A stretch of DNA of 64,000 nt from Octopus vulgaris. Lineage: Eukaryota. The stretch spans positions 34,286,001-34,350,000 of the forward strand of contig OX597820.1 in assembly GCA_951406725.2 (NCBI GenBank). Reading direction: 5' to 3'. Positions 1,916-27,631 of this stretch are shown here, piece after piece. The position numbers and the translations under genes are program-made. The first letter of the stretch is position 1; each line of letters begins with the position of its first letter. Below the pieces are notes generated by a model that worked only from the letters and a program-made list of their open reading frames with translations, had not been told where the DNA came from and did no database searches.

Positions 1916-2749
1916 CAATCGTAGGAACTCCCCTTCCTCTCCCGTCACCACTCCTATGCTAACCTGATTAACACTACCTGCCTGCCTACCAACCCCTTTT
2001 CTTCTTTAATTTCTTTTTAAATGCCTCTCTCTTTCTCTCTCTCTCTCTCTTGCTCTCTCTCTCTCTCTCTTGCTCTCTCTCTTTCTCTCTCTCTCTTTCT
2101 CTCTGGTGTGTGTATATGTATCTCTAGTGTGTGTCTCCCTTGTGCGTAGTGTTTTGTGTGTGTGTATCTTTTCCTTCTGTGTGTGTGTATGAATTTGCAT
2201 GTGCATGTGTGTTTCTCTCCTGAGTGAGTGTATGTGTGTGCGTGCATGTGTTTCCCCCCATCTCCCCTTTTTCTCGTATATCTGTGTATGTATGTATGTG
2301 TGTGTCTTTACAACTGTCTGATATTCTTCAGCCGATAATTGGTGCCATTAAAGTACATTTTACAGATATAGTACATTATGCAGTAAATTTTACAGATACA
2401 AAAAAAAAAAAAAATCCACAGCTTTTGCCTCTGATGGTGAAACAGAGACCTTTGATATAAATGCAGGAATTCTTCAATGTGATACTGTAGTGCATTTCCT
2501 TTTTGGCAATGTCTTTGAGTATCAGTGGATACAGTTAATAGTAAAGATTTTTTACTCTGAAACAATGCTTATGCTGTGCATTCATAAAACCAATACAGAT
2601 TTCACAGACAATCATGCCCTACTTCCTTATTCCTTATGGAAGCACAAGATCTAACAATGTCCTTCAAGACATCAGCAAACCAAGTAGGGTTTTAGCTAAA
2701 TGACATTATTTACACCTGATGGATATTTGTCCTCATCTTGTTTGTTGTA

Positions 2750-2795
2750 AACACAACATTTCGGCTGATATACCCTCCAGCCTTCATCAGGAGTC
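2750..2795 (-). ncRNA. Minimal type I hammerhead ribozyme-like motif (left arm)
   Basis: Minus strand reads gactc-CTGATGA-a-ggctg[gagggtatat]cagcc-GAAA-tgtt-gtgtt. Stem II is 5 bp; GAAATGTT differs from GAAACGTT by one CpG-type change. Confidence 0.6.
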
Positions 2796-3112
2796 TTGGG
2801 GAAATTTCGAACCTGGGTTCTCATTCCTAAGGTATTTTTCGATGTTATTATTATTATTATTATTATCATCATCATTATTATTATTATTATTATTATTGTT
2901 CAGGTCACTGCCTGGAATCGAATTCGGAATCTTGGGGTTAGTAGCCGGCGCTCTTAACCACTATGCCATTTGCCCGTAGTGGTTAAGAGCGTGGGCTACT
3001 AACCCCAAGATTCCGAGTTCGATTCCAGGCAGTGACTTGAACAATAATAATAATAATAAATAACATTCAAAAATACCTTAGGAATGAGAACCCAGGTTTG
3101 AAATTTCCCCAA

Positions 3113-3158
3113 GACACCTGATGAAGGCTAGAGGGTATATCAGCCGAAATTTTGTGTT
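3113..3158 (+). ncRNA. Minimal type I hammerhead ribozyme-like motif (right arm)
   Basis: gacac-CTGATGA-a-ggct[agagggtatatc]agcc-GAAA-tttt-gtgtt. Stem I is gacac/gtgtt and stem II is ggct/agcc; stem III has decayed. Confidence 0.6.
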
Positions 3159-3941
3159 AACAACAAACAAGATGAGGGCAAATATCTGTCAAATGTAAAT
3201 AATGTAAATATAGTATTAGTGATGTAATTTTTGTCTGGTGCTCCACCAGTTCTGTCACTCACTGCTCTTTTTGATATTAACATCATGCTCCCAGTACACC
3301 CTGTAAAGTGGTTGACAATAGGCTGGGCATCCAGCTGTAGAAACCAAGTCAAATGACACGTGTAAGCACCAGTCTGAGGAGCATTAGCTCCCAATTACAG
3401 CTGACACTGTCCAACCCATGCCAACATGGCAGGCAGACATACGATGATGATGACGATGCTTTCTAAATTTAGGAAGGGGTGACACATTCTAAGGGAACAA
3501 ATATTTTATTAAATTGTATCCTCCATCTCTGTTACTCCTATCTGCCACCCGCATAATGATAACAATAGGGAGTGTAACATTTCAGTCATATTGCAACCAT
3601 TTATATCGAACATGTGATATTTCATATAGTAAGGGTCAGTATTATCCATTTATTTTATCGCTGCCACCATTTTAATCTCTTTTTCACTTCCACTCCGACC
3701 ACTCCCATCTTATTCTTTTCTGGCCCCTTCTCTCACATGTTTAAATCCTTCTTCTCCTAGCATAAGTCTGCCTCCCCCTCTACTGTAGCTCCAGTCACTG
3801 AAAGGGGATATTAATTTTGCATGCTGCATGGCAACCTCATTAGTGCTGGGGCCATACAAAAAGTAGTAGCACGCACTAGTACTTGCTGTAAAATGGCTGG
3901 CATCAGCAAGGGCAGTCTAGGTATAGAAACCATGCCAAAGC

Positions 3942-4576
3942 TAAGGCAGCGAGCTGGCAGAAACATTAGCACGCTGGGCGAAATGCTTAGCGGTATTTCG
4001 TCTGCTGTTATGTTCTGAGTTCAAATTCTGCCGAGGTGGACTTTGCCTTTCATCCTTTTGGGGTCGATAAATTAAGTACCAGTTACGTAGTGGGCTCGAT
4101 GTAATTGACTTAATCCCTTTGTCTGTCCTTGTTTGTCCCCTCTGTGTGTAGCCCCTTGTGGGTAGTAAAGAAATAGGTATTTCGTCTGCCGTTATGTTCT
4201 GAGTTCAAATTCTGCCGTGGTCGACTTTGCCTTTCATCCTTTCGGGGTCAATAAATTAAGTACCAGTTACGCAGTGGGGTCGATGTATCGTCTTAATCCC
4301 TATGTCTGTCCTTGTTTGTCCCCTCTATGTTTAGCCCCTTGTGGGCAATAAAGAAATAAGAAACGTTAGCATGCCGGGCGAAATGCTTTAGTAGTATTTC
4401 GTCTGCCGTTATGTTCTAAGTTCAAATTCCGCTGAGGTCGACTTTGCCTTTCATCCTTTCGGGGTCGATAAATTAAGTACCAGTTACGCAGTGGGGTCGA
4501 TGTAATCGACTTAATCCCTTTGTCTGTCCTTGTTTGTCCCCTCTATGTTTAGCCCCTCGTGGGCAATAAAGAAATA
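3942..4576 (+). mobile_element. Tandem trimer of tRNA-derived SINE (family A)
   Basis: Three copies of gagttcaaattc...gactttgcctttcatcctttcggggtcgataaattaagtacc...aaagaaata. Flanked by a near-perfect 17-bp direct repeat agaaacc(a/c)tgccaaagc at 3925-3941 and 4577-4593. Confidence 0.9.
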
Positions 4577-7611: not shown

Positions 7612-8029
7612 AATAATAATAATAATAATAATAATGTTGTTGTTGTTACTGCTGCTTATTCTGTTTCTGTTGTTACTTGCCATATTATCAGCATGATTGT
7701 GAAAGTGGCCAGTTGGCTGAGTGGTCATAGCATTGGATAGGTTTTGCTCTGCCATAACCAATCTGGTTCCCTGCATCCTGAGTTCAAATCCTGCCGAGGT
7801 TAACTTTGCCTTCCTTCTGACTGGGGTTGATAAAAAAAAAAATAAGGTACCAGTTAAATACTGGGGTTGAGGCTATTTGGTGGGTGTCGGTCGTTAGTTC
7901 GTTAATGTAGCTTCCCCTTCAAATTTTTAGATATAGGACTCATCGAAACACTTCTGCTCTATCTTTCCTCCTCCTGCTCCCCTCCCCCCTCTTCCACTTT
8001 CTCCTCCCCCTTCATCCAACTCCTCTTTC

Positions 8030-19557: not shown

Positions 19558-20005
19558 CCCTCTAGTGTTCACATTATTCTGCCAAAATTAATGCTTCTTT
19601 ATCCGCATTGTTTTGAACTAATCATGCATTATCTTGTAGCTATGAGATTTCAATGAGGTAGCTGTTAATTTTTAAAACAATATTGTGGGGTTGGTGTGAG
19701 AGACCATAATTGGCCAGTTTGAACATAAAACAGGCAGAATACTTTTGGCAGGATATGGCCGGTTTAAATGCTAAAGCACTGCTTTTCAATCTTTTTGCTG
19801 GAGCGGAACCCCAAGGAAACATTCCGCTGGCTCGAGGAACCCCTGTGCAATAATTTAATAGTCTTATGCACACGTATCTGCACAGGAGAATTAAAAATTA
19901 CTGCCGATTTTAGCAGTTTTGTAACTTCTTGCAGAACCCCTAGACTGTACTGGCGGAACCCTAAGGTTCCGCGGAACCCTGGTTGAAAACCACTGTGCTA
20001 AAGGG
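19558..20005 (-). mobile_element. piggyBac-type (TTAA) MITE, family D, interrupted by a hAT MITE
   Basis: TTAA|ccct...aggg|TTAA termini; reverse complement of 45831-46051. Confidence 0.85.
19777..19995. mobile_element. hAT-type MITE with 8-bp TSD
   Basis: TSD tgctaaag at 19769-19776 and 19996-20003. Imperfect TIRs cactgcttttcaa / ttgaaaaccactg, with subterminal cggaaccc repeats. Confidence 0.9.
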
Positions 20006-20269
20006 TTAAAGGTCTAACCTTGTCATATACTGTGTCACACTGATTTTGCTTGGGTATTAAATTACAGCTTCACATATCAGAGGAATACGCAACCACTTAC
20101 ATGTTAATTCAGGTGCAGATAATTCTATTCATTACAACAACGGAATGCCCATTGTCAAATGACAGAGAGATTCACCATATCTGAAAATAAAAGACAGCTT
20201 GGTCACAGCCAGAATGCCTTTGTTCATAACTGCTCTGTTCAGTCACAGCAGGCCTAGGTTCAGAGGTCG

Positions 20270-20850
20270 CCAAGGTTAACTTTGACTTTTGTCCTTTTGG
20301 GGGGTCAATGAAATAGTTATCAGATGAGCACTGAGGTCGATGTAATCAACTAGACCCCCACCGCAGAAATTTCAAGCTTTGTGCCTAGATTATTATTATC
20401 ATGAACATGGCAGAATTGTTAGCTTGCTTGGCAAAATGCTTAGCCACATTATGTCTGTCTTTACATTCTGTGTTCAAATTCTGCTGAGGTCAACTTTGCT
20501 TTTTATCCTTTTGAGTTGATGTAATCAACCTACTTCCTCCCCTGAAATTGCTAGCCTTGTGCCAAAATTTGAAACCACTATTATTATTATTATTATCATC
20601 CTTATCATCATTATTATTATTATTATTATTGAAGGCGGTGAGCTGGCAGAATCATTTGCATGTTGGACTGAATGCTTAGCAGTATTTTACCCGTCGCTTC
20701 ATTCTGAGTTCAAATTCCACCGAGGTCGACTTTGCCTTTCATCCTTTTGGGGTTGATAAATTAAGTACCAGTGAAACAATGGGGTTGATGTAATCAACTA
20801 GTCCCCTCCACCACAATTTCAGGCCTTGTGCCTATAGTAGAAAGGATTAT
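20270..20850 (+). mobile_element. Cluster of three family A-related SINE copies
   Basis: Repeated gagttcaaatt...gactttgcctttcatcctttt...gatgtaatcaac blocks with (ATT)n tails. Confidence 0.8.
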
Positions 20851-21468
20851 TGTAGTATTTTATATTTAAAAAGGGTGCAAAAAGATGAAAAAAAAAAGTC
20901 AAACAGTGCTTCAACTCTGTGTGTGTGCATATGTATACATGTATATATGTATGAGTAGCATAGTCTGTAGTGAATGCGGTTTTCTATACTTTGTCACAGC
21001 CCGCTTCCTTCCTTTTTAAGTGTGTCTGTTTATATATGTATATGTGTGTGTGTGTATGTGTAAATGTGCATGTGTCTGTAATTCTATTTTCTAAATAAAC
21101 ATACACAAACACATATACACTCACTCAAATATATTAATATATTTTGCACAAATACATGCACACACACACAGATACATTCACATTCCTTCCTTTTACATGC
21201 ACACACATATATTCACTGTTTGATTTTTTATTTCACTGGTGACTTTTCACCATCCTACTTCCATCAGTGGATCACACCTTTCTTTCTAATTCATATGTTT
21301 TGATGGAGAAAGAAGACACACGACGCTCTCTTTGCCACTTCCTCTCTGTCATTGCTGTCACTTTCTCTCACTTCCTCTCAGTTATGGCTCTTACTCTCAC
21401 TACTTCTCCTTCACTGAATTACTATTCTCTCTCCTCTCCCGTCATCATTCACCCCTGCATGATTTTGG

Positions 21469-21511
<43 letters not shown>

Positions 21512-21566
21512 CACAAATATATAATAACACTATACTCATTATTACATTAGGAGATTATTATCATAA

Positions 21567-21750
21567 AGGTGGCAAGCTGGCAGAATTGTCTGGGATTACG
21601 TTCTGAGTTTAAATTCCACTGAGGTCGACTTTGCCCTTTATCCTTTTGGGGTTGCTAAATTAAGTACCAGTTGAGTACTGGGGTTGATGTAATCAACTAT
21701 CCCCTTCCCCCAAATTTCTGACCTTGTGCATATAGCAGAAAGGATTGATA
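21567..21750 (+). mobile_element. SINE family A-related
   Basis: aggtggcaagctggcagaa head and gaggtcgactttgcc...ttaagtaccag body. Confidence 0.8.
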
Positions 21751-21762
21751 TTATTATTGTTA

Positions 21763-22156
21763 GGCGCAGGAGTGACTGTGTGGTAAGTAGCTTGCTTATA
21801 AACCACATGGTTCTGGGTTCAGTCCCACTGCGTGGCACCTTGGGCAAGTGTCTTCTACTATAGCCTCGGGCCAACCAAAGCCTTGTGAGTGGATTTGGTA
21901 GATGGAAACTGAAAGAAGCCCATCGTATATATGTATATATATATATGTGTGTGTTTGTGTGTCTGTGTTTGAAACCCCAACATCGCTTGAGAACTGATGC
22001 TGGTGTGTTTACGTCCCCGTAACTTAGCGGTTCGGTAAAAGAGACCAATAGAATAAGTACTAGGCTTACAAAGAATAAGTCCTGGGGTTGATTTGCTCGA
22101 CTAAAGGCGGTGCTCCAGCATGGCTGCAGTCAAATGACTGAAACAAGTAAAAGAGT
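21763..22156 (+). mobile_element. Full-length tRNA-derived SINE, family B (CORE-like segment)
   Basis: A box tgtgtggtaag, B box gggttcagtccc, a ccttgggcaagt segment reminiscent of the CORE domain, an internal (TA)/(TG) microsatellite and an aaacaagtaaaagag tail. More than 10 copies occur in the window. Confidence 0.9.
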
Positions 22157-22372
22157 ATGCTGGGCAAAATGCTAAGTGACATTTCATCAGGCTTTATGTT
22201 CTGAGTTCAAATTCCTCCAAATGTCAACATTGTCTTTTATTCCTTTTGGGGTCAATAAACTAAGTACCAGTGAAGCATTGGTGTCGATTGACTAGTCCTC
22301 TCCCTACAAATTTCAGGCCATGTGCCTATAATAGAAAGGGTTATTATTATTATAATATCATTATTATTATTA

Positions 22373-22411
<39 letters not shown>

Positions 22412-22639
22412 TACTACTACTACTACTACTATTGTTATTATTATCGCAGTCATTGTCATCAACATCGTTTCCTTTTACTAATCATGACTCAATAACCACA
22501 ACAAAGACAACAACAACTACAAAAGAAACAAACAGTTTTTCTGTTTGAAATATTTACATACTTAAGGAGTTAGCGGAAGACAAGTGACTGGTTTGAATTA
22601 TTTGAAGCTACAGCCGTCTCCATTCATAGTCAGCAGTTT

Positions 22640-23180
22640 CACCACCAACACCACCACCACCATCATCATCATTATCATCACTACCATTGCCTTCATTCCC
22701 AACGTCACCTACTCAATTGCTGCTCACAGTCATCATCATCATCATCATCACTACCACAGTCAGCACCACCACTGTTGCCTTCATCCTGAACACCACCATC
22801 ATCATCATCATTGTTATTATTCACCATCATCACTATCATCATCATCATCATCATCATTATTCATTGTTGTTGTCATCACCAACACCACAACCACCACCAC
22901 CACTACTATGATCACCTACTACATCACTATTACCACCACCACCACAACGACAACCATGTTACCATCACGGTCACATTACCAGCGTTATCACAATCACCAC
23001 CATCACCAACCTCACCACTACAGTTGCTGCTACAATTACCCCTGCCACCCCCTACCCATCTTCCCTGGTATTCTGGCCACTGCCACTACCCCCCCTCACC
23101 ACAACTACCTGTACAGATGCCACACCCACAACCACGGCTGCCAAAGCCACCGCTCCTAACCTCACCACGACCAATACCAC
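22640..23180. repeat. (CAC/CAT)n low-complexity tract
   Basis: Directly visible. Confidence 0.9.
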
Positions 23181-23440
23181 TATCGTTCCAGTCTGAGAAA
23201 TATTGGCTGTAGAAATAACTAAAGGAATAGAAAAGACGTGACTTGAGTGTGTGCATGTGTTTGTGTGTGTGCGCGTGTGTGTGTGTTCATGAATCTGTGT
23301 TTGTGGACATGAATAACAGCATGAATGTGTGTGTATCTGTGTAGCGTTGCATGTGCATGTATATGCAAACGAAGATGTGTGTAAATATGTGTTTGTATTT
23401 ATGTGTGTATGCAAGTGAAGGTGTGCATAGATATACTTCC

Positions 23441-23478
<38 letters not shown>

Positions 23479-23949
23479 TGTATGTTGAACTAATACCATC
23501 ATATCAAGACCGTTCAAGTGAAAAAAAAAAAAAGGAACAGATTACATTGAAAAGATTTCAATATTTGAGTAACTGACATTGGTATTGGACATTTTGTAGT
23601 TGACATTCTATGTTGAACCACCACCATTATTATCATCATCATCATCTTCATCCTCATCATTTAGCATCTGTTGTCCATGCTGGCATAGGTTGAGAGGTTT
23701 GGCCAGGGCTGGTAAGCTGAGGAGCTGCACTGGACTCCAAGTCTGATTTGGCATGGTTTCTACAGCTGGATGCCCTTCCTAACACCAACCACTCTGAGAG
23801 TGTAATGAGTGCTTTTATGTGCCACCGGCATGGTTGCCAGTTTCATGACACCAATATCTATCACAACTACAATTTCACTTGGCTTGATGGGCAGAGTCTT
23901 GGTCATATGTCATTGCTTCCATTGAATGTCTTTGTATATATGTATGTTT

Positions 23950-24147
23950 GACTGCGTGTGTACCGTTGGCGATTTTTTGCCCTCTGTCTTCCCTTCCCTG
24001 GATCTTTCCTTCTCCTATGTTTCCGACGAAGAGCTCTGCTCGAAATGTTAAACCCTCCTTCTTTCCTTCTTTCCTGAGCGTCCAATAATACTATATTTGT
24101 TCCATGTCCTCGCGTTGTTGTGTTTTTTTGTGCTTTCTTGTTTGGAT

Positions 24148-24151
<4 letters not shown>
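23950..24151 (+). mobile_element. Hammerhead-bearing repeat abutting (TA)n (Penelope pLTR / retrozyme-like)
   Basis: 24019-24053 reads gttt-CCGACGA-a-gagc[tct]gctc-GAAA-tgtt-aaac. The repeat ends ggattaac|(TA)n and is homologous to 37081-37320 on the minus strand. Confidence 0.7.
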
Positions 24152-24207
<56 letters not shown>

Positions 24208-24309
24208 CAATTGAGGATAAAATCTTTATAAGAAATTATCAGTAGTTAGCGTGAAAAACCTCGTAAGAGAAAAAATCCGTAAATTTTTCCACTTTGAAAA
24301 TATTTATTT

Positions 24310-24630
24310 ATATTATATTGAGGGTACTACTATTCATAGATACCGCATGCTAAGAGGGACCAATGCAGTCAAAACTACTAAAATATACAAAATTTTACCG
24401 AATGCGTTATGATTTTTCTTATATGTCTTGAGTTTGTTGCACTGATGAACATAGAATGCATATTCTGCATTAATTGCGAAATCACAGGTGATATGTAACT
24501 AAATTCTTTTTTTAAATGACTTGCTTTGAAGTTTTGCATTCGGTAAAATTTTGTTTATTTTAGTAGTTTTGACCGCATTGGTCCCTCTTAGCGTGCGGTA
24601 TCTATGAATAGTAGTACCCTCAATATAATA
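24310..24630. repeat. ~95-bp inverted repeat element inside a (TA)n tract
   Basis: tattatattgagggtactactattcatagataccgc...aaaattttaccgaatgc (about 24311-24405) pairs with its reverse complement at about 24536-24630. Confidence 0.9.
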
Positions 24631-26182
24631 TATATATATATATATATATGTAAATATATATATATGTAAATATACATATGTCTGTGTATCATAGTTTTAA
24701 TATCCACTTTTCTATGCTTGCATGAGTTGGGCAGATTTTCTACTGCCAGATGTCCTTTCTTTTGCCAACCCCACTCATTTTTTAAAGCAGTATAATGTTT
24801 CTCTGATGGTTAGGTGTGCTTGTGCAGAATATTGGAAATAAGTGACAGTGACTGTATAACAGCTACAATCATTTACTACTATGTCAAAGTAAGGAGAGAG
24901 AGAGAGAGTGAGACACATACACACATACATTTCCTGGCCATCTAATAGTTCTGCCAGTCCCTGGATTTGTACTTTTTTTTCATGAACCCTGAAGGGATGA
25001 AAGGAGAAGTTGATGTTGGCAGGATTTGAACTCAGGACATAGTGAGTTGGTGCAGATATTGCTATGTGTTCTATCCAATGTGCTAATGACTCTGTTAGTT
25101 CATCAGCCTGGATTTGGATTAACAGCAGAACAGTAGCGGCTTGTCTATAGGTGCTGTGGAACTACAGCACCGTCTATTTCCACTTGATATTGTTGATAAC
25201 ATTCACTATAATGAGTCCTTTTTTTCTTTAATTCTTACTTGTACATTATATAATCCTTAAGCTTAATGTCAGTAGCCATCCCCTAGTTTATGAAAAATAC
25301 AAAAATCCTTGTATAGAACCGTGTCCTTCACAGTCCCAGTGACACGGTGTTGTGCACATGCTCACATGTTTGAGATAGGAAGCTTCATACTACAGGGAGA
25401 GAGCACTGTGTGAATGACAGTACTGACTTTTGTGTTCAAGTGAAAGGTAGTGTTTCTTTTTGATTCCACATGTGTTGCGCTTAAAAATGTATTTATATTC
25501 TTGAATGTGATAAAGTGTAGAATGAGACTATTATCCCTGCTTCCAGCTTCAGTGTTACTGTCAGGATTTGAAAAAATAGGGCACCCCTCACAATTTAGGG
25601 GGTGGTTTTGAAAAACAAGGGAGAATTCGCAGTGGTGTTTGGTGAACAAATTAAACACACTACCCAGCAGTGGCTAAAATGCGAACCAATCACGTTTATG
25701 TATAAATTTTCTTTTTATATGTTTGTTTCCTTTTACACAATATTAAAACAATGGCTAAACATTTTCTGAAGCAGCACACCCCACTAATTTTATCTACAAG
25801 CCCATACTGCAACAGAATGATAGTTTCTGAGGTATACTTTCTTAAAATGAACACACTAGCATAGAGGATAGGATTGAAAGAAAAAAGGCTGGATCTAAAC
25901 TTGCAAAGGTAGTTGGGCTCTAGCCATGAAATGTGGCAGTATAAACCAAACCAATGCAAATGATGGGATTGAAATAATAAACATGATTGGGCCAAATCTA
26001 AAAAATGGTTATGGGCCTAAACTAGCAGCAAAGGTGATACTGTAAATGACACCCACAAAGTTGATGGAATCAAAATACTAAACATTGATGCACATGTAAA
26101 ATACATTGTGGGCCCCAAACAGTAAGGATAGTAAGAACAACAGTCAAGGTTTGTAAATACCAAACTACAATCTAGTAAAGGT

Positions 26183-26510
26183 CAAGGAGCACTCTGTCGG
26201 TTACAACGATGAAGGTCCTGGCTGATATGATCAACGGAACAGCTTGCTCGTGAAATTAACATGCAAGTGACTGAGTATTCCAAAGACATGTGTACCCTTA
26301 ACGTAGTTCTCAGGGAGATTCAGTGTGACACAAAGTATGACAAGGCTGGCCCTTTGAAATACAGATGCTACTTATTTTTGCCAGCTGAGTGGACTGGAGC
26401 AACGTGAAATAAAGTGTCTTGCTCAAGGACACAACATGTCGCCAGGAATTGAACTCACGACCTTACAACCATGAGCCAAATGTCCTAACCACTAAGCCAC
26501 GCACCTTCAC
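26183..26510 (-). mobile_element. tRNA-derived SINE, family E
   Basis: Minus strand reads ggtgcgtggcttagtggttagg...gagttcaattcc...ccttgagcaagacac; related to 60711-61165 and 59975-60200. Confidence 0.85.
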
Positions 26511-27631
26511 TAGTAAAGGTAATTGGGCAGTAATTGGGCAACTACCTCAAATGTAGTTTAGATGACTGTCCTTCAGTTAGTGGGTCAGATGAGAATATGC
26601 CTCTGTGACCCTGTTTCAGTTTTGGCTCTTTACAAACCACCAACAGCATTAGCAGTATGAGGACATCCATTCAGAGACTCTCAGACCCCACTGCACTTTG
26701 CTCAGTCTCTTTTGTCAGGAAATTAAAACTAAACCATTGCTGTAATTTGCTTTACCCGCTCTACCTTGCCAGCCACCTCCTCACTTTCTATATCCCTTGC
26801 AATCTCTCTCAAAACCAATCAGCTACCTCTGTTTCTGTTTCTCTCCTCAGTTAGCTATGTTTGACTGTCTATCCTCTCTCTCTTCCCCACTCTCTCTCTC
26901 TCTTACTCTATCAATCAATCTATCTATGTTGGTCTGTCTCTCCCTGTCCAGCTCACCATACTTAACCATTTTGTCTCTCTATTTGCTTGTCTCTCCTTCT
27001 TTAGCTATCTATCTCCGTCTCTCTCTCTCTGATTGTATGTATGATTCTCTGGCCACTTACCACTCTCTCTTCACAACATCCTTCCCCTCTTTCTCCCCTA
27101 CTTTTTTTAATTTCCTCCTCATCTTCTTTATAGACTTCATCTCTTCCCACCGCCAATCAATTTCTCCACCCTCCTTCCTTGACTCTACTGCCACCCTTTT
27201 CTCAAGCTGTGTCTCTGTCCACTCATTAATTAAAGAGTCAGTTCATTTGCTCACTTCTCCTGGATTAGGATTTCCTCCTTTCATTATTTCAGTTTTCTAA
27301 TTATTCCTTACTTTTAGATCTGCATGTCTGTCTGCCCATCCATATGTCTGCACATCTATCACTTCCTATTCTCATTTTTGTTCTTTTTATCTTTTCTCTC
27401 CTCCAGCCATCTCCGTCCTCCACTCACCTCCCTCTTCCACTTATCTTTCTCCTCCAGTCATCTCCTCCTCTGGTCATTTCACTTCTCCAGCTTTTTCAAC
27501 TCCAGAAAGATAAAAGGCAGAGTTGACCATTCTAAGATTTGAACTCAGAACATAAAGAGCTAAAACAAATATTTCAAATCATTGTTTATTCCAATAATCT
27601 AACAATTGTGCCAGCTTATTACCTTCATAAA

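Follow-up and report, generated by a model that had tools for sequence, protein, structure and literature searches.

Among the Penelope-like elements (PLEs), those of the Penelope/Poseidon clade encode a reverse transcriptase (RT) followed, at the C-terminus, by a GIY-YIG endonuclease (EN), which is described as lacking the Zn-finger linker of Neptune and Nematis (PMC8557442). Their terminal repeats (pLTRs) consist of the UTR plus the start of the ORF, with an optional tail of ~30 nt, AT-rich targets and a promoter position within the pLTR (PMC11167929, PMC2377424). The promoter of the D. virilis Penelope, which was located in the pLTR, is LINE-like and TATA-less, and this element has an intron (PMC2377424). 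In the Anolis Poseidon element PAc, a hammerhead overlaps the ORF start, both strands are nicked and extended, and two internal RT starts define the tail (PMC11167929). In PLEs, minimal hammerheads (Cervera and de la Pena, 2014, PMC4209133) show an extra base, a G10.1-C11.1 pair, an ACGU stem III and a 5-bp stem I, and occur as thousands of solo copies and as opposite-strand pairs 100-700 bp apart; the available text of that study describes no tRNA head or Pol III promoter. The Schistosoma SM-alpha and Sj-alpha repeats combine a Pol III-type promoter with a downstream type I hammerhead, but these repeats are tandem and non-coding, have no ORF and carry a hammerhead of the canonical form (PMC6765202). 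Animal non-LTR retrozymes, which are proposed to be derivatives or relatives of PLE pLTRs, include many monomers but are defined by tandem units, each of which has a hammerhead (bioRxiv 10.64898/2026.07.22.740005). Lastly, the Cassandra, Helenus and Ajax TRIMs, which are non-autonomous LTR elements, carry a small-RNA-derived Pol III promoter within the terminal repeat (PMC10886601). The literature data given here and below come from the accessible parts of these sources.

The family analyzed here resembles the Anolis element in the position of its hammerhead and in its two RT starts, and the Penelope/Poseidon PLEs generally in the order of its domains and in the composition of its pLTR, its tail, its targets and its promoter position. 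It differs from them in having a tRNA-derived head with A and B boxes at the promoter position and a sense strand devoid of T4 runs. All the features of PLE minimal hammerheads listed above were found, along with the head that was not described there. The likeness to SM-alpha lies in the order of candidate promoter and hammerhead, except that here the unit forms the terminus of an autonomous element and its copies are inverted rather than tandem; that to Cassandra, Helenus and Ajax lies in the site of the candidate promoter, although the present element is very probably an autonomous PLE. The class of element, the minimal hammerheads in pLTRs and the inverted pLTR pairs were already known (PMC8557442, PMC4209133). 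A search of the openly accessible literature (main texts) brought up no paper in which a PLE has a promoter of the Pol III type or of tRNA origin, and the family may already have been catalogued, for example in Repbase/Dfam. Two cephalopod repeat surveys (PMC13282606, PMC8967140) make no mention of a tRNA-derived PLE promoter in their available text.

Architecture of the Palindrome

The window (the whole stretch of DNA analyzed, 64,000 nt from Octopus vulgaris contig OX597820.1) contains a near-perfect inverted repeat of 503 nt at 2703-3205 (Table 1). Arms 2703-2849/3059-3205 are 92% identical and arms 2881-2963/2977-3059 are 95% identical, and the predicted fold of this stretch (-374 kcal/mol) gives a z of -38.6, 0/100 shuffles being as good. 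The initial annotation, which had described a foldback element made of two divergent copies of one unit, was therefore right about the palindrome. The tRNA-like head, the (AAT)n, the CTGATGA-stem II-GAAA motif and the pairing stem I that it listed are all present in the sequence, stem I having 5 bp; N17 of its predicted NUU cut site falls at 3153, and stem III is mutated in both copies, as it had stated (AUUU on the right and AUGU on the left, versus ACGU in the family). The A and B boxes are a more mixed case: both heads are present, but each arm has one damaged box, the right A box being clipped and the left B box reading ATTCGA. The proposed second B box, GTTCGAAAT, lacks the last C of GWTCRANNC and falls within the first ORF codons. 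Both hammerhead copies in the window are decayed and probably inert. Since neither arm carries the tail, the window insertion belongs to a minority class (10/117 arms), and no clear target duplication was found around it.

Table 1. Features of the palindrome in the window (head numbering: 0 = tRNA position 1).
Feature	Position	Strand	Basis
Left arm, solo pLTR assigned to the Penelope/Poseidon element, head -2 to unit 144, without 31-nt tail	2703..2977	-	blastn vs family majority, 95-96%
Right arm, solo pLTR, head +10 (A box clipped) to unit 144-149, without tail	2975..3210	+	94-97% to family majority
Head-to-head junction, 3-nt overlap CGT common to both arms, at self-complementary head start	2975..2977	.	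sequence
Left tRNA-Thr(AGT)-like head; intact A box, 2968-2958; B box 2923-2915, first G to A	2899..2977	-	sequence
Right tRNA-like head; A box without first 3 nt; intact B box GTTCGATTC, 3017-3025	2975..3041	+	sequence
(AAT)n spacer, left, length variable	2847..2898	-	sequence
(AAT)n spacer, right	3042..3061	+	sequence
ORF codons 1-40, left arm, open; ATG at 2824; matches N-terminus of relative P0004	2705..2824	-	sequence comparison
ORF start in right arm; ATG 3084-3086; codon 6 turned into a stop by CpG decay	3084..3205	+	sequence
Minimal type I hammerhead, right copy, inside ORF; stem III mutated	3113..3158	+	sequence
Right hammerhead, stem I	3113-3117/3154-3158	+	sequence
Right hammerhead, core	3118-3124	+	sequence
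Right hammerhead, extra A	3125	+	sequence
Right hammerhead, stem II	3126-3145	+	sequence
Right hammerhead, GAAA	3146-3149	+	sequence
Right hammerhead, predicted cut	after 3153	+	sequence
Left minimal hammerhead; mutated stem III, single mismatch in stem I	2750..2795	-	sequence

The Autonomous Element

The palindrome almost certainly consists of two head-to-head pLTRs of an autonomous element of the Penelope/Poseidon type, the units of which show the order tRNA-Thr-like head, (AAT)n, ATG, hammerhead (codons 11-26), RT, GIY-YIG, stop and next head. The involvement of a Penelope-like machinery suggested by the initial annotation is thus borne out in a closer form, the unit being itself the pLTR of such an element. 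At locus L058, coding-looking DNA precedes the head, and a search with this DNA added 14 loci where the head lies ~25 nt past the GIY-YIG stop; this immediate succession is found in L057, L058 and L062-L075, and locus L074 carries RT and endonuclease in a single decayed frame. Among 30 loci selected on the RT, 16 have kept the stop motif, the head standing right behind it in 15/16, and an inverted pLTR lies upstream in 18/30. In the other direction, the optional 31-nt tail continues in frame into the ORF (60 exact junction matches), and at locus L386 one uninterrupted piece holds the head, (AAT)n, ATG, the hammerhead and the ORF. No copy with both a complete head and a complete ORF was found among the 11 of these 60 junction loci that were examined.

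The family-majority ORF is a single frame of 835 aa with an RT followed by a GIY-YIG domain with CCHH, and contains the motifs YVDD, VYSIPCSC-YKGET, EEH/ADH and KEAAH. RVT_1 was matched with E=4e-9; the Pfam search gave no GIY-YIG match, this domain being assigned from its motifs and homologs. There are 718 ORF homologs, including P0004 (57% identical), in which the peptide encoded by the hammerhead, TPD.G...PKRCV, is kept; it is also present in P0135, with S for P. The CxxC linker between RT and EN is absent from the translation, which would place the element in the Penelope/Poseidon clade. The features of EN+ PLEs, inverted 5'-truncated pLTR copies, partial tandems of pLTR and ORF and an optional tail of 30-40 bp at one end, were likewise found.

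Two side observations concern these loci. At L387, L386, L388 and L248/L157, the insertions are complex, pieces of pLTR and of ORF being connected by several template switches. In the closest relative fetched (L301, 5180-5300), a (TTA)n microsatellite lies just past the stop codon, with no tRNA head.

Family Size and Copy Composition

In the genome searched (2.8 Gb, 227 contigs), a 32-nt hammerhead-core pattern had 2855 exact matches, versus 0 for its control, and a calibrated but rough estimate gives ~20,000-27,000 arms. The ORF end is absent from 80-90% of them, and the long matches have a median identity of 93% to the family majority. Exact counts of 20-mers along the element were 859 (at -196), 1027 (-35), 5148 (+29), and then 9064 and 11811 (controls, 0), which corresponds after calibration to a roughly tenfold step in copy number at the head. 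Among loci selected on the head, 25/30 continue into the PLE part.

The initial annotation had taken the unit for a possible self-cleaving SINE or retrozyme in its own right, which did not hold, since it serves the autonomous element as its pLTR and short and ORF-linked copies have their markers in common. Source lineages are real (61A-130G linkage, p=1e-5; 73A-51G, p=0.001), and marker 61A occurs in 5/41 ORF-linked and 24/144 short copies, marker 73A in 6/44 and 20/145, respectively. All four lineage markers have similar rates in the two sets, and none is private to the short copies. The short copies are SINE-like in look and are best interpreted as short cDNAs made from the autonomous element.

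Two candidate classes were rejected. An independent SINE lineage with source copies of its own was rejected on account of the lineage markers common to ORF-linked copies. As regards a non-LTR retrozyme, the tandem hammerhead units expected of one are not what was found, a tandem being flagged at the 5' junction in 1/169 arms.

Junctions of the Arms

The junctions were studied in 166 distinct arms from chromosome C1, at loci chosen on 3'-side motifs. The frequency of palindromic copies, which the initial annotation had proposed to count, is high, an inverted partner being present for 125/166 arms. The 3' ends cluster at unit positions 141-151 and 173-178, that is, ~55 or 85 nt beyond the cut site, with no cluster at the cut site itself. 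Paired arms are mostly discordant for the tail (103/117), and target duplications of 8-15 nt were found at 54/97 pairs, versus ~1 by random pairing. Taken together, the tail discordance and the target duplications imply that a palindrome is one endonuclease-made insertion, the outer ends of which are two RT start sites. When clean lineage markers (61 and 51) were compared within pairs, both arms carried the marker in 8 cases and one arm in 6, versus 1.3 and 19.4 expected if the arms were independent. The arms of a pair thus agree more often than by chance, though not in every case, and an insertion may have drawn on one RNA or on two.

Fold-back priming, put forward earlier as a possible origin of the palindrome, cannot alone explain the 103/117 tail-discordant arms. 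Since a first arm without a tail cannot give rise to a tailed copy by folding back, priming on both nicked strands would fit these data better. Locus L274, where two inverted tail-bearing arms are followed by nearly the same flank, suggests a later, larger inverted duplication.

The Hammerhead Motif

The family-majority motif has an extra base between positions 9 and 10.1, a G10.1-C11.1 pair and a palindromic ACGU stem III, and shows everything that defines the minimal type I: CUGANGA, GAAA, NUH, stems I and II and the palindromic stem III. These features bear out its assignment to the Penelope minimal type. The family majority has GAAACGTT, which is the most frequent form (35/107) among arms selected by sequence that lies beyond the core, and the other forms reflect mostly CpG decay; the full hammerhead core is kept in 29/107. 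Recurrent non-CpG changes in the motif affect the free position 7 (18/107) and loop II (15/107), and it is these changes that mark the source lineages described above.

The comparison of core and stems proposed by the initial annotation gave a divided answer. Beside related metagenome ORFs, 14 distinct motifs were found in which the core is kept and the stems differ (a comparison made without a shuffle control), with a stem II of at least 4 bp in 11 and a stem I of at least 3 bp in 12. Within the genome, on the other hand, conservation of the core (0.945) equals that of the flanks (0.945), as expected under neutral decay. Cleavage as a dimer, which had been envisaged, does not apply to the pair in the window, because any single transcript of head-to-head copies has one hammerhead in antisense and no cis dimer can form; elsewhere, cleavage by the putative hammerhead would take place in a dimer or with the help of a protein. 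No pile-up of molecule ends at the cut site was seen in the RNA-seq data, although this type of library could miss such ends. An Rfam search made no hammerhead call on the window.

As regards other hammerhead families, the first 100 of the 543 genome matches all belonged to this family except 3 (L289-L291). These are lone hammerhead-like cores in other sequence, with weak stems and no ORF match nearby, and are perhaps remnants of older Penelope families.

The tRNA-like Head and Transcription

In the majority head, the A box (at +7) and the B box (at +52) are both exact and stand 45 nt apart. A tRNA pattern with canonical spacing built from the head hit 27 genome sites, 10 of which are of one tRNA sequence type, and ARAGORN names all four tRNA genes fetched tRNA-Thr(AGT). 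The head is identical to these genes, in register, at 36/57 nt, a comparison in which the retrieval was circular and the shuffle test inflated. ARAGORN called no tRNA on the window or in any of 50 loci (0/50). Rfam gave no tRNA call on the window and neither a tRNA nor a hammerhead call on a near-majority copy, and the sole tRNA that it called on 20 loci (L303) lies outside the pLTR. No A/B boxes were found within 350 nt upstream of 19 hammerhead matches in related metagenome sequences (17/79 loci). Apart from these searches, L292 (1478-1551 and 2348-2423), L298 and L299 carry clustered tRNA-Thr genes (AGT and TGT).

Among the arms reaching +8, 40/47 end within -8..+8, versus 26/73 across the preceding 70 nt; the former count includes six arms first placed at -14, which are fold-back alignment artefacts. 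The end pile-up coincides with a bulged 10-bp hairpin spanning -14..+9. This palindrome, formed by the spacer and the first head bases, is possibly a relic of fold-back at the capture of the tRNA. While ~23/40 of the pile-up arms have fold-back-type junctions, 17/40 end at -6..+7 with no fold-back signature, and 4/8 solo arms reaching +8 end at the head start. A start near -6 would lie 13 nt ahead of the A box, which is typical of Pol III, the normal products of which are short non-coding RNAs.

The T runs were counted in a single test, made as a prediction of Pol III read-through. The 2637-nt sense strand contains 0 TTTT, versus 3.3 expected from synonymous ORF shuffles (P=0.018); since all 15 TTT have well-supported flanks, this absence is not a majority-rule artefact. 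Runs of G4 are also 0 (1.05 expected). In the comparison set of 79 metagenome loci, 41 of which have ORFs of at least 400 aa, T4 runs occur in 40/41 related ORFs, with no depletion (396 seen vs 363 expected), and the closest relative fetched, L301, has 0, against 2.4 expected over its 473 codons.

A search across sequencing runs brought up no recorded RNA run containing the element, a result that carries no evidence on its expression. Locus L255 served as the target for aligning one contig set and 6% of each of three raw RNA-seq runs from organism B, the reads being cut at the microsatellite. No pile-up of starts at the head was observed in the three runs, which are libraries that may miss short uncapped RNA. 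There is no strand bias, the two directions being equal, and most reads run on into unrelated sequence, as expected of copies embedded in host transcripts. In X21, the depth of the head bin (284/212) is below that of the ORF-end bins (406-440/336-371). Reads across the tail-ORF junction numbered 4, 2 and 2, and the alignment showed no intron-type joint near the head.

Origin of the Palindrome and Role of the Head

We put at roughly 55% the probability of the explanation that we favor, in which the palindrome arose when two pLTRs were inserted head-to-head in a single event, having been copied, from the ORF start to the 5' end, from an RNA started by Pol III. Pol III would start ~13 nt ahead of the A box and, meeting no T-run terminator, could read the whole unit and on into the next pLTR. 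The protein of the element would nick both strands of AT-rich DNA, 10-13 bp apart, and the RT would begin internally on the RNA, close to the ORF start, at one or the other of two sites separated by ~30 nt, as in the Anolis Poseidon. The cDNAs would usually extend over ~250-280 nt to the RNA 5' end, and two of them, joined at self-complementary or microhomologous ends, would form the palindrome. The Pol III role proposed by the initial annotation remains plausible in view of the boxes, the end pile-up and the absence of T4, but the RNA-seq data gave it no excess of starts at the head. The fact that the head occupies the position of the D. virilis Penelope promoter (PMC2377424) was also counted in favor of a promoter role. 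On balance, the element RNA would start at a captured tRNA-Thr-like Pol III promoter; that Pol III transcribes the whole 2.6-kb RT-endonuclease unit, the tRNA gene having replaced a Pol II promoter and the unit having lost its T-run terminators by purging, is a more tentative proposal. The Pol III reading is weakened by the RNA-seq result, by the hairpin located at the pile-up and by the fact that it leaves the translation of an uncapped RNA unexplained.

The same hairpin is at the heart of a different reading, which we regard as possible but rather unlikely: the tRNA head would be a fossil insertion, transcription would depend on Pol II as in other Penelopes, and the hairpin at -14..+9 would cause the end pile-up by stalling the RT or by making the cDNA fold back or switch template. 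The coincidence of hairpin and pile-up, the fold-back-type junctions, the weaker step in solo arms, the LINE-like internal promoter known in Penelope (PMC2377424) and the RNA-seq reads without a head-initiated excess are all consistent with it. It leaves aside the 17 pile-up arms that end without a fold-back signature; moreover, the 2-nt bulge is absent from the fold-back junctions, so that the cDNA had ended before -8, the source sequence has kept exact A and B boxes, and a T4-free strand is not predicted. A mixed mode, in which Pol III makes a short RNA from the head to the ORF start that is copied in trans in a SINE-like manner while the protein comes from Pol II read-through, would account for the 80-90% of ORF-less copies that begin at or past the head and would sidestep the problem of translating an uncapped RNA. 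We consider it improbable, since the unit has no terminator at which such an RNA would end, T4 avoidance in the ORF is not predicted, and the source markers are common to short and ORF-linked copies. As for a self-cleaving SINE or retrozyme that propagates through short copies of its own and owes its palindromes to fold-back priming, the high copy number, the combination of head and hammerhead, and the lineage markers that paired arms have in common above chance all speak for it. However, the unit belongs to an autonomous element, the short copies have no private marker, tandem arrays are rare, the 3' ends lie beyond the cut site and paired arms are discordant for the tail, which makes this origin highly improbable.

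Even without Pol III, Penelope transposition has left a clean natural record in this family: its two fixed RT starts, 10-13 bp target duplications and tail/no-tail pairs make the origin of inverted pLTRs testable, two primed cDNAs and fold-back being the alternatives. If the Pol III-driven explanation is true, the element RNA would be a natural long protein-coding Pol III transcript, which raises the question of its translation as an uncapped RNA and that of the purpose served by a hammerhead inside the ORF. Strong-stop cDNAs primed from both target strands would then have seeded ~20,000 SINE-looking palindromic arms, which would be one route for the birth of a SINE from within its own mobilizer. 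Automatic annotation would file the solo copies as a tRNA SINE, and the thousands of ~240-bp hairpins may be a source of dsRNA in host transcripts.

Other Repeats in the Window

At 3987-4576, the window contains three near-tandem copies of another repeat, 184 and 217 nt apart, with a fourth copy at 7778-7877. This repeat, which has a B-box-like GAGTTCAAAT and a conserved central block, resembles a tRNA-CORE SINE. A long degenerate (GGT)n at 830-1100 faces a degenerate (ACC)n at 1280-1876, the two forming a loose inverted repeat.
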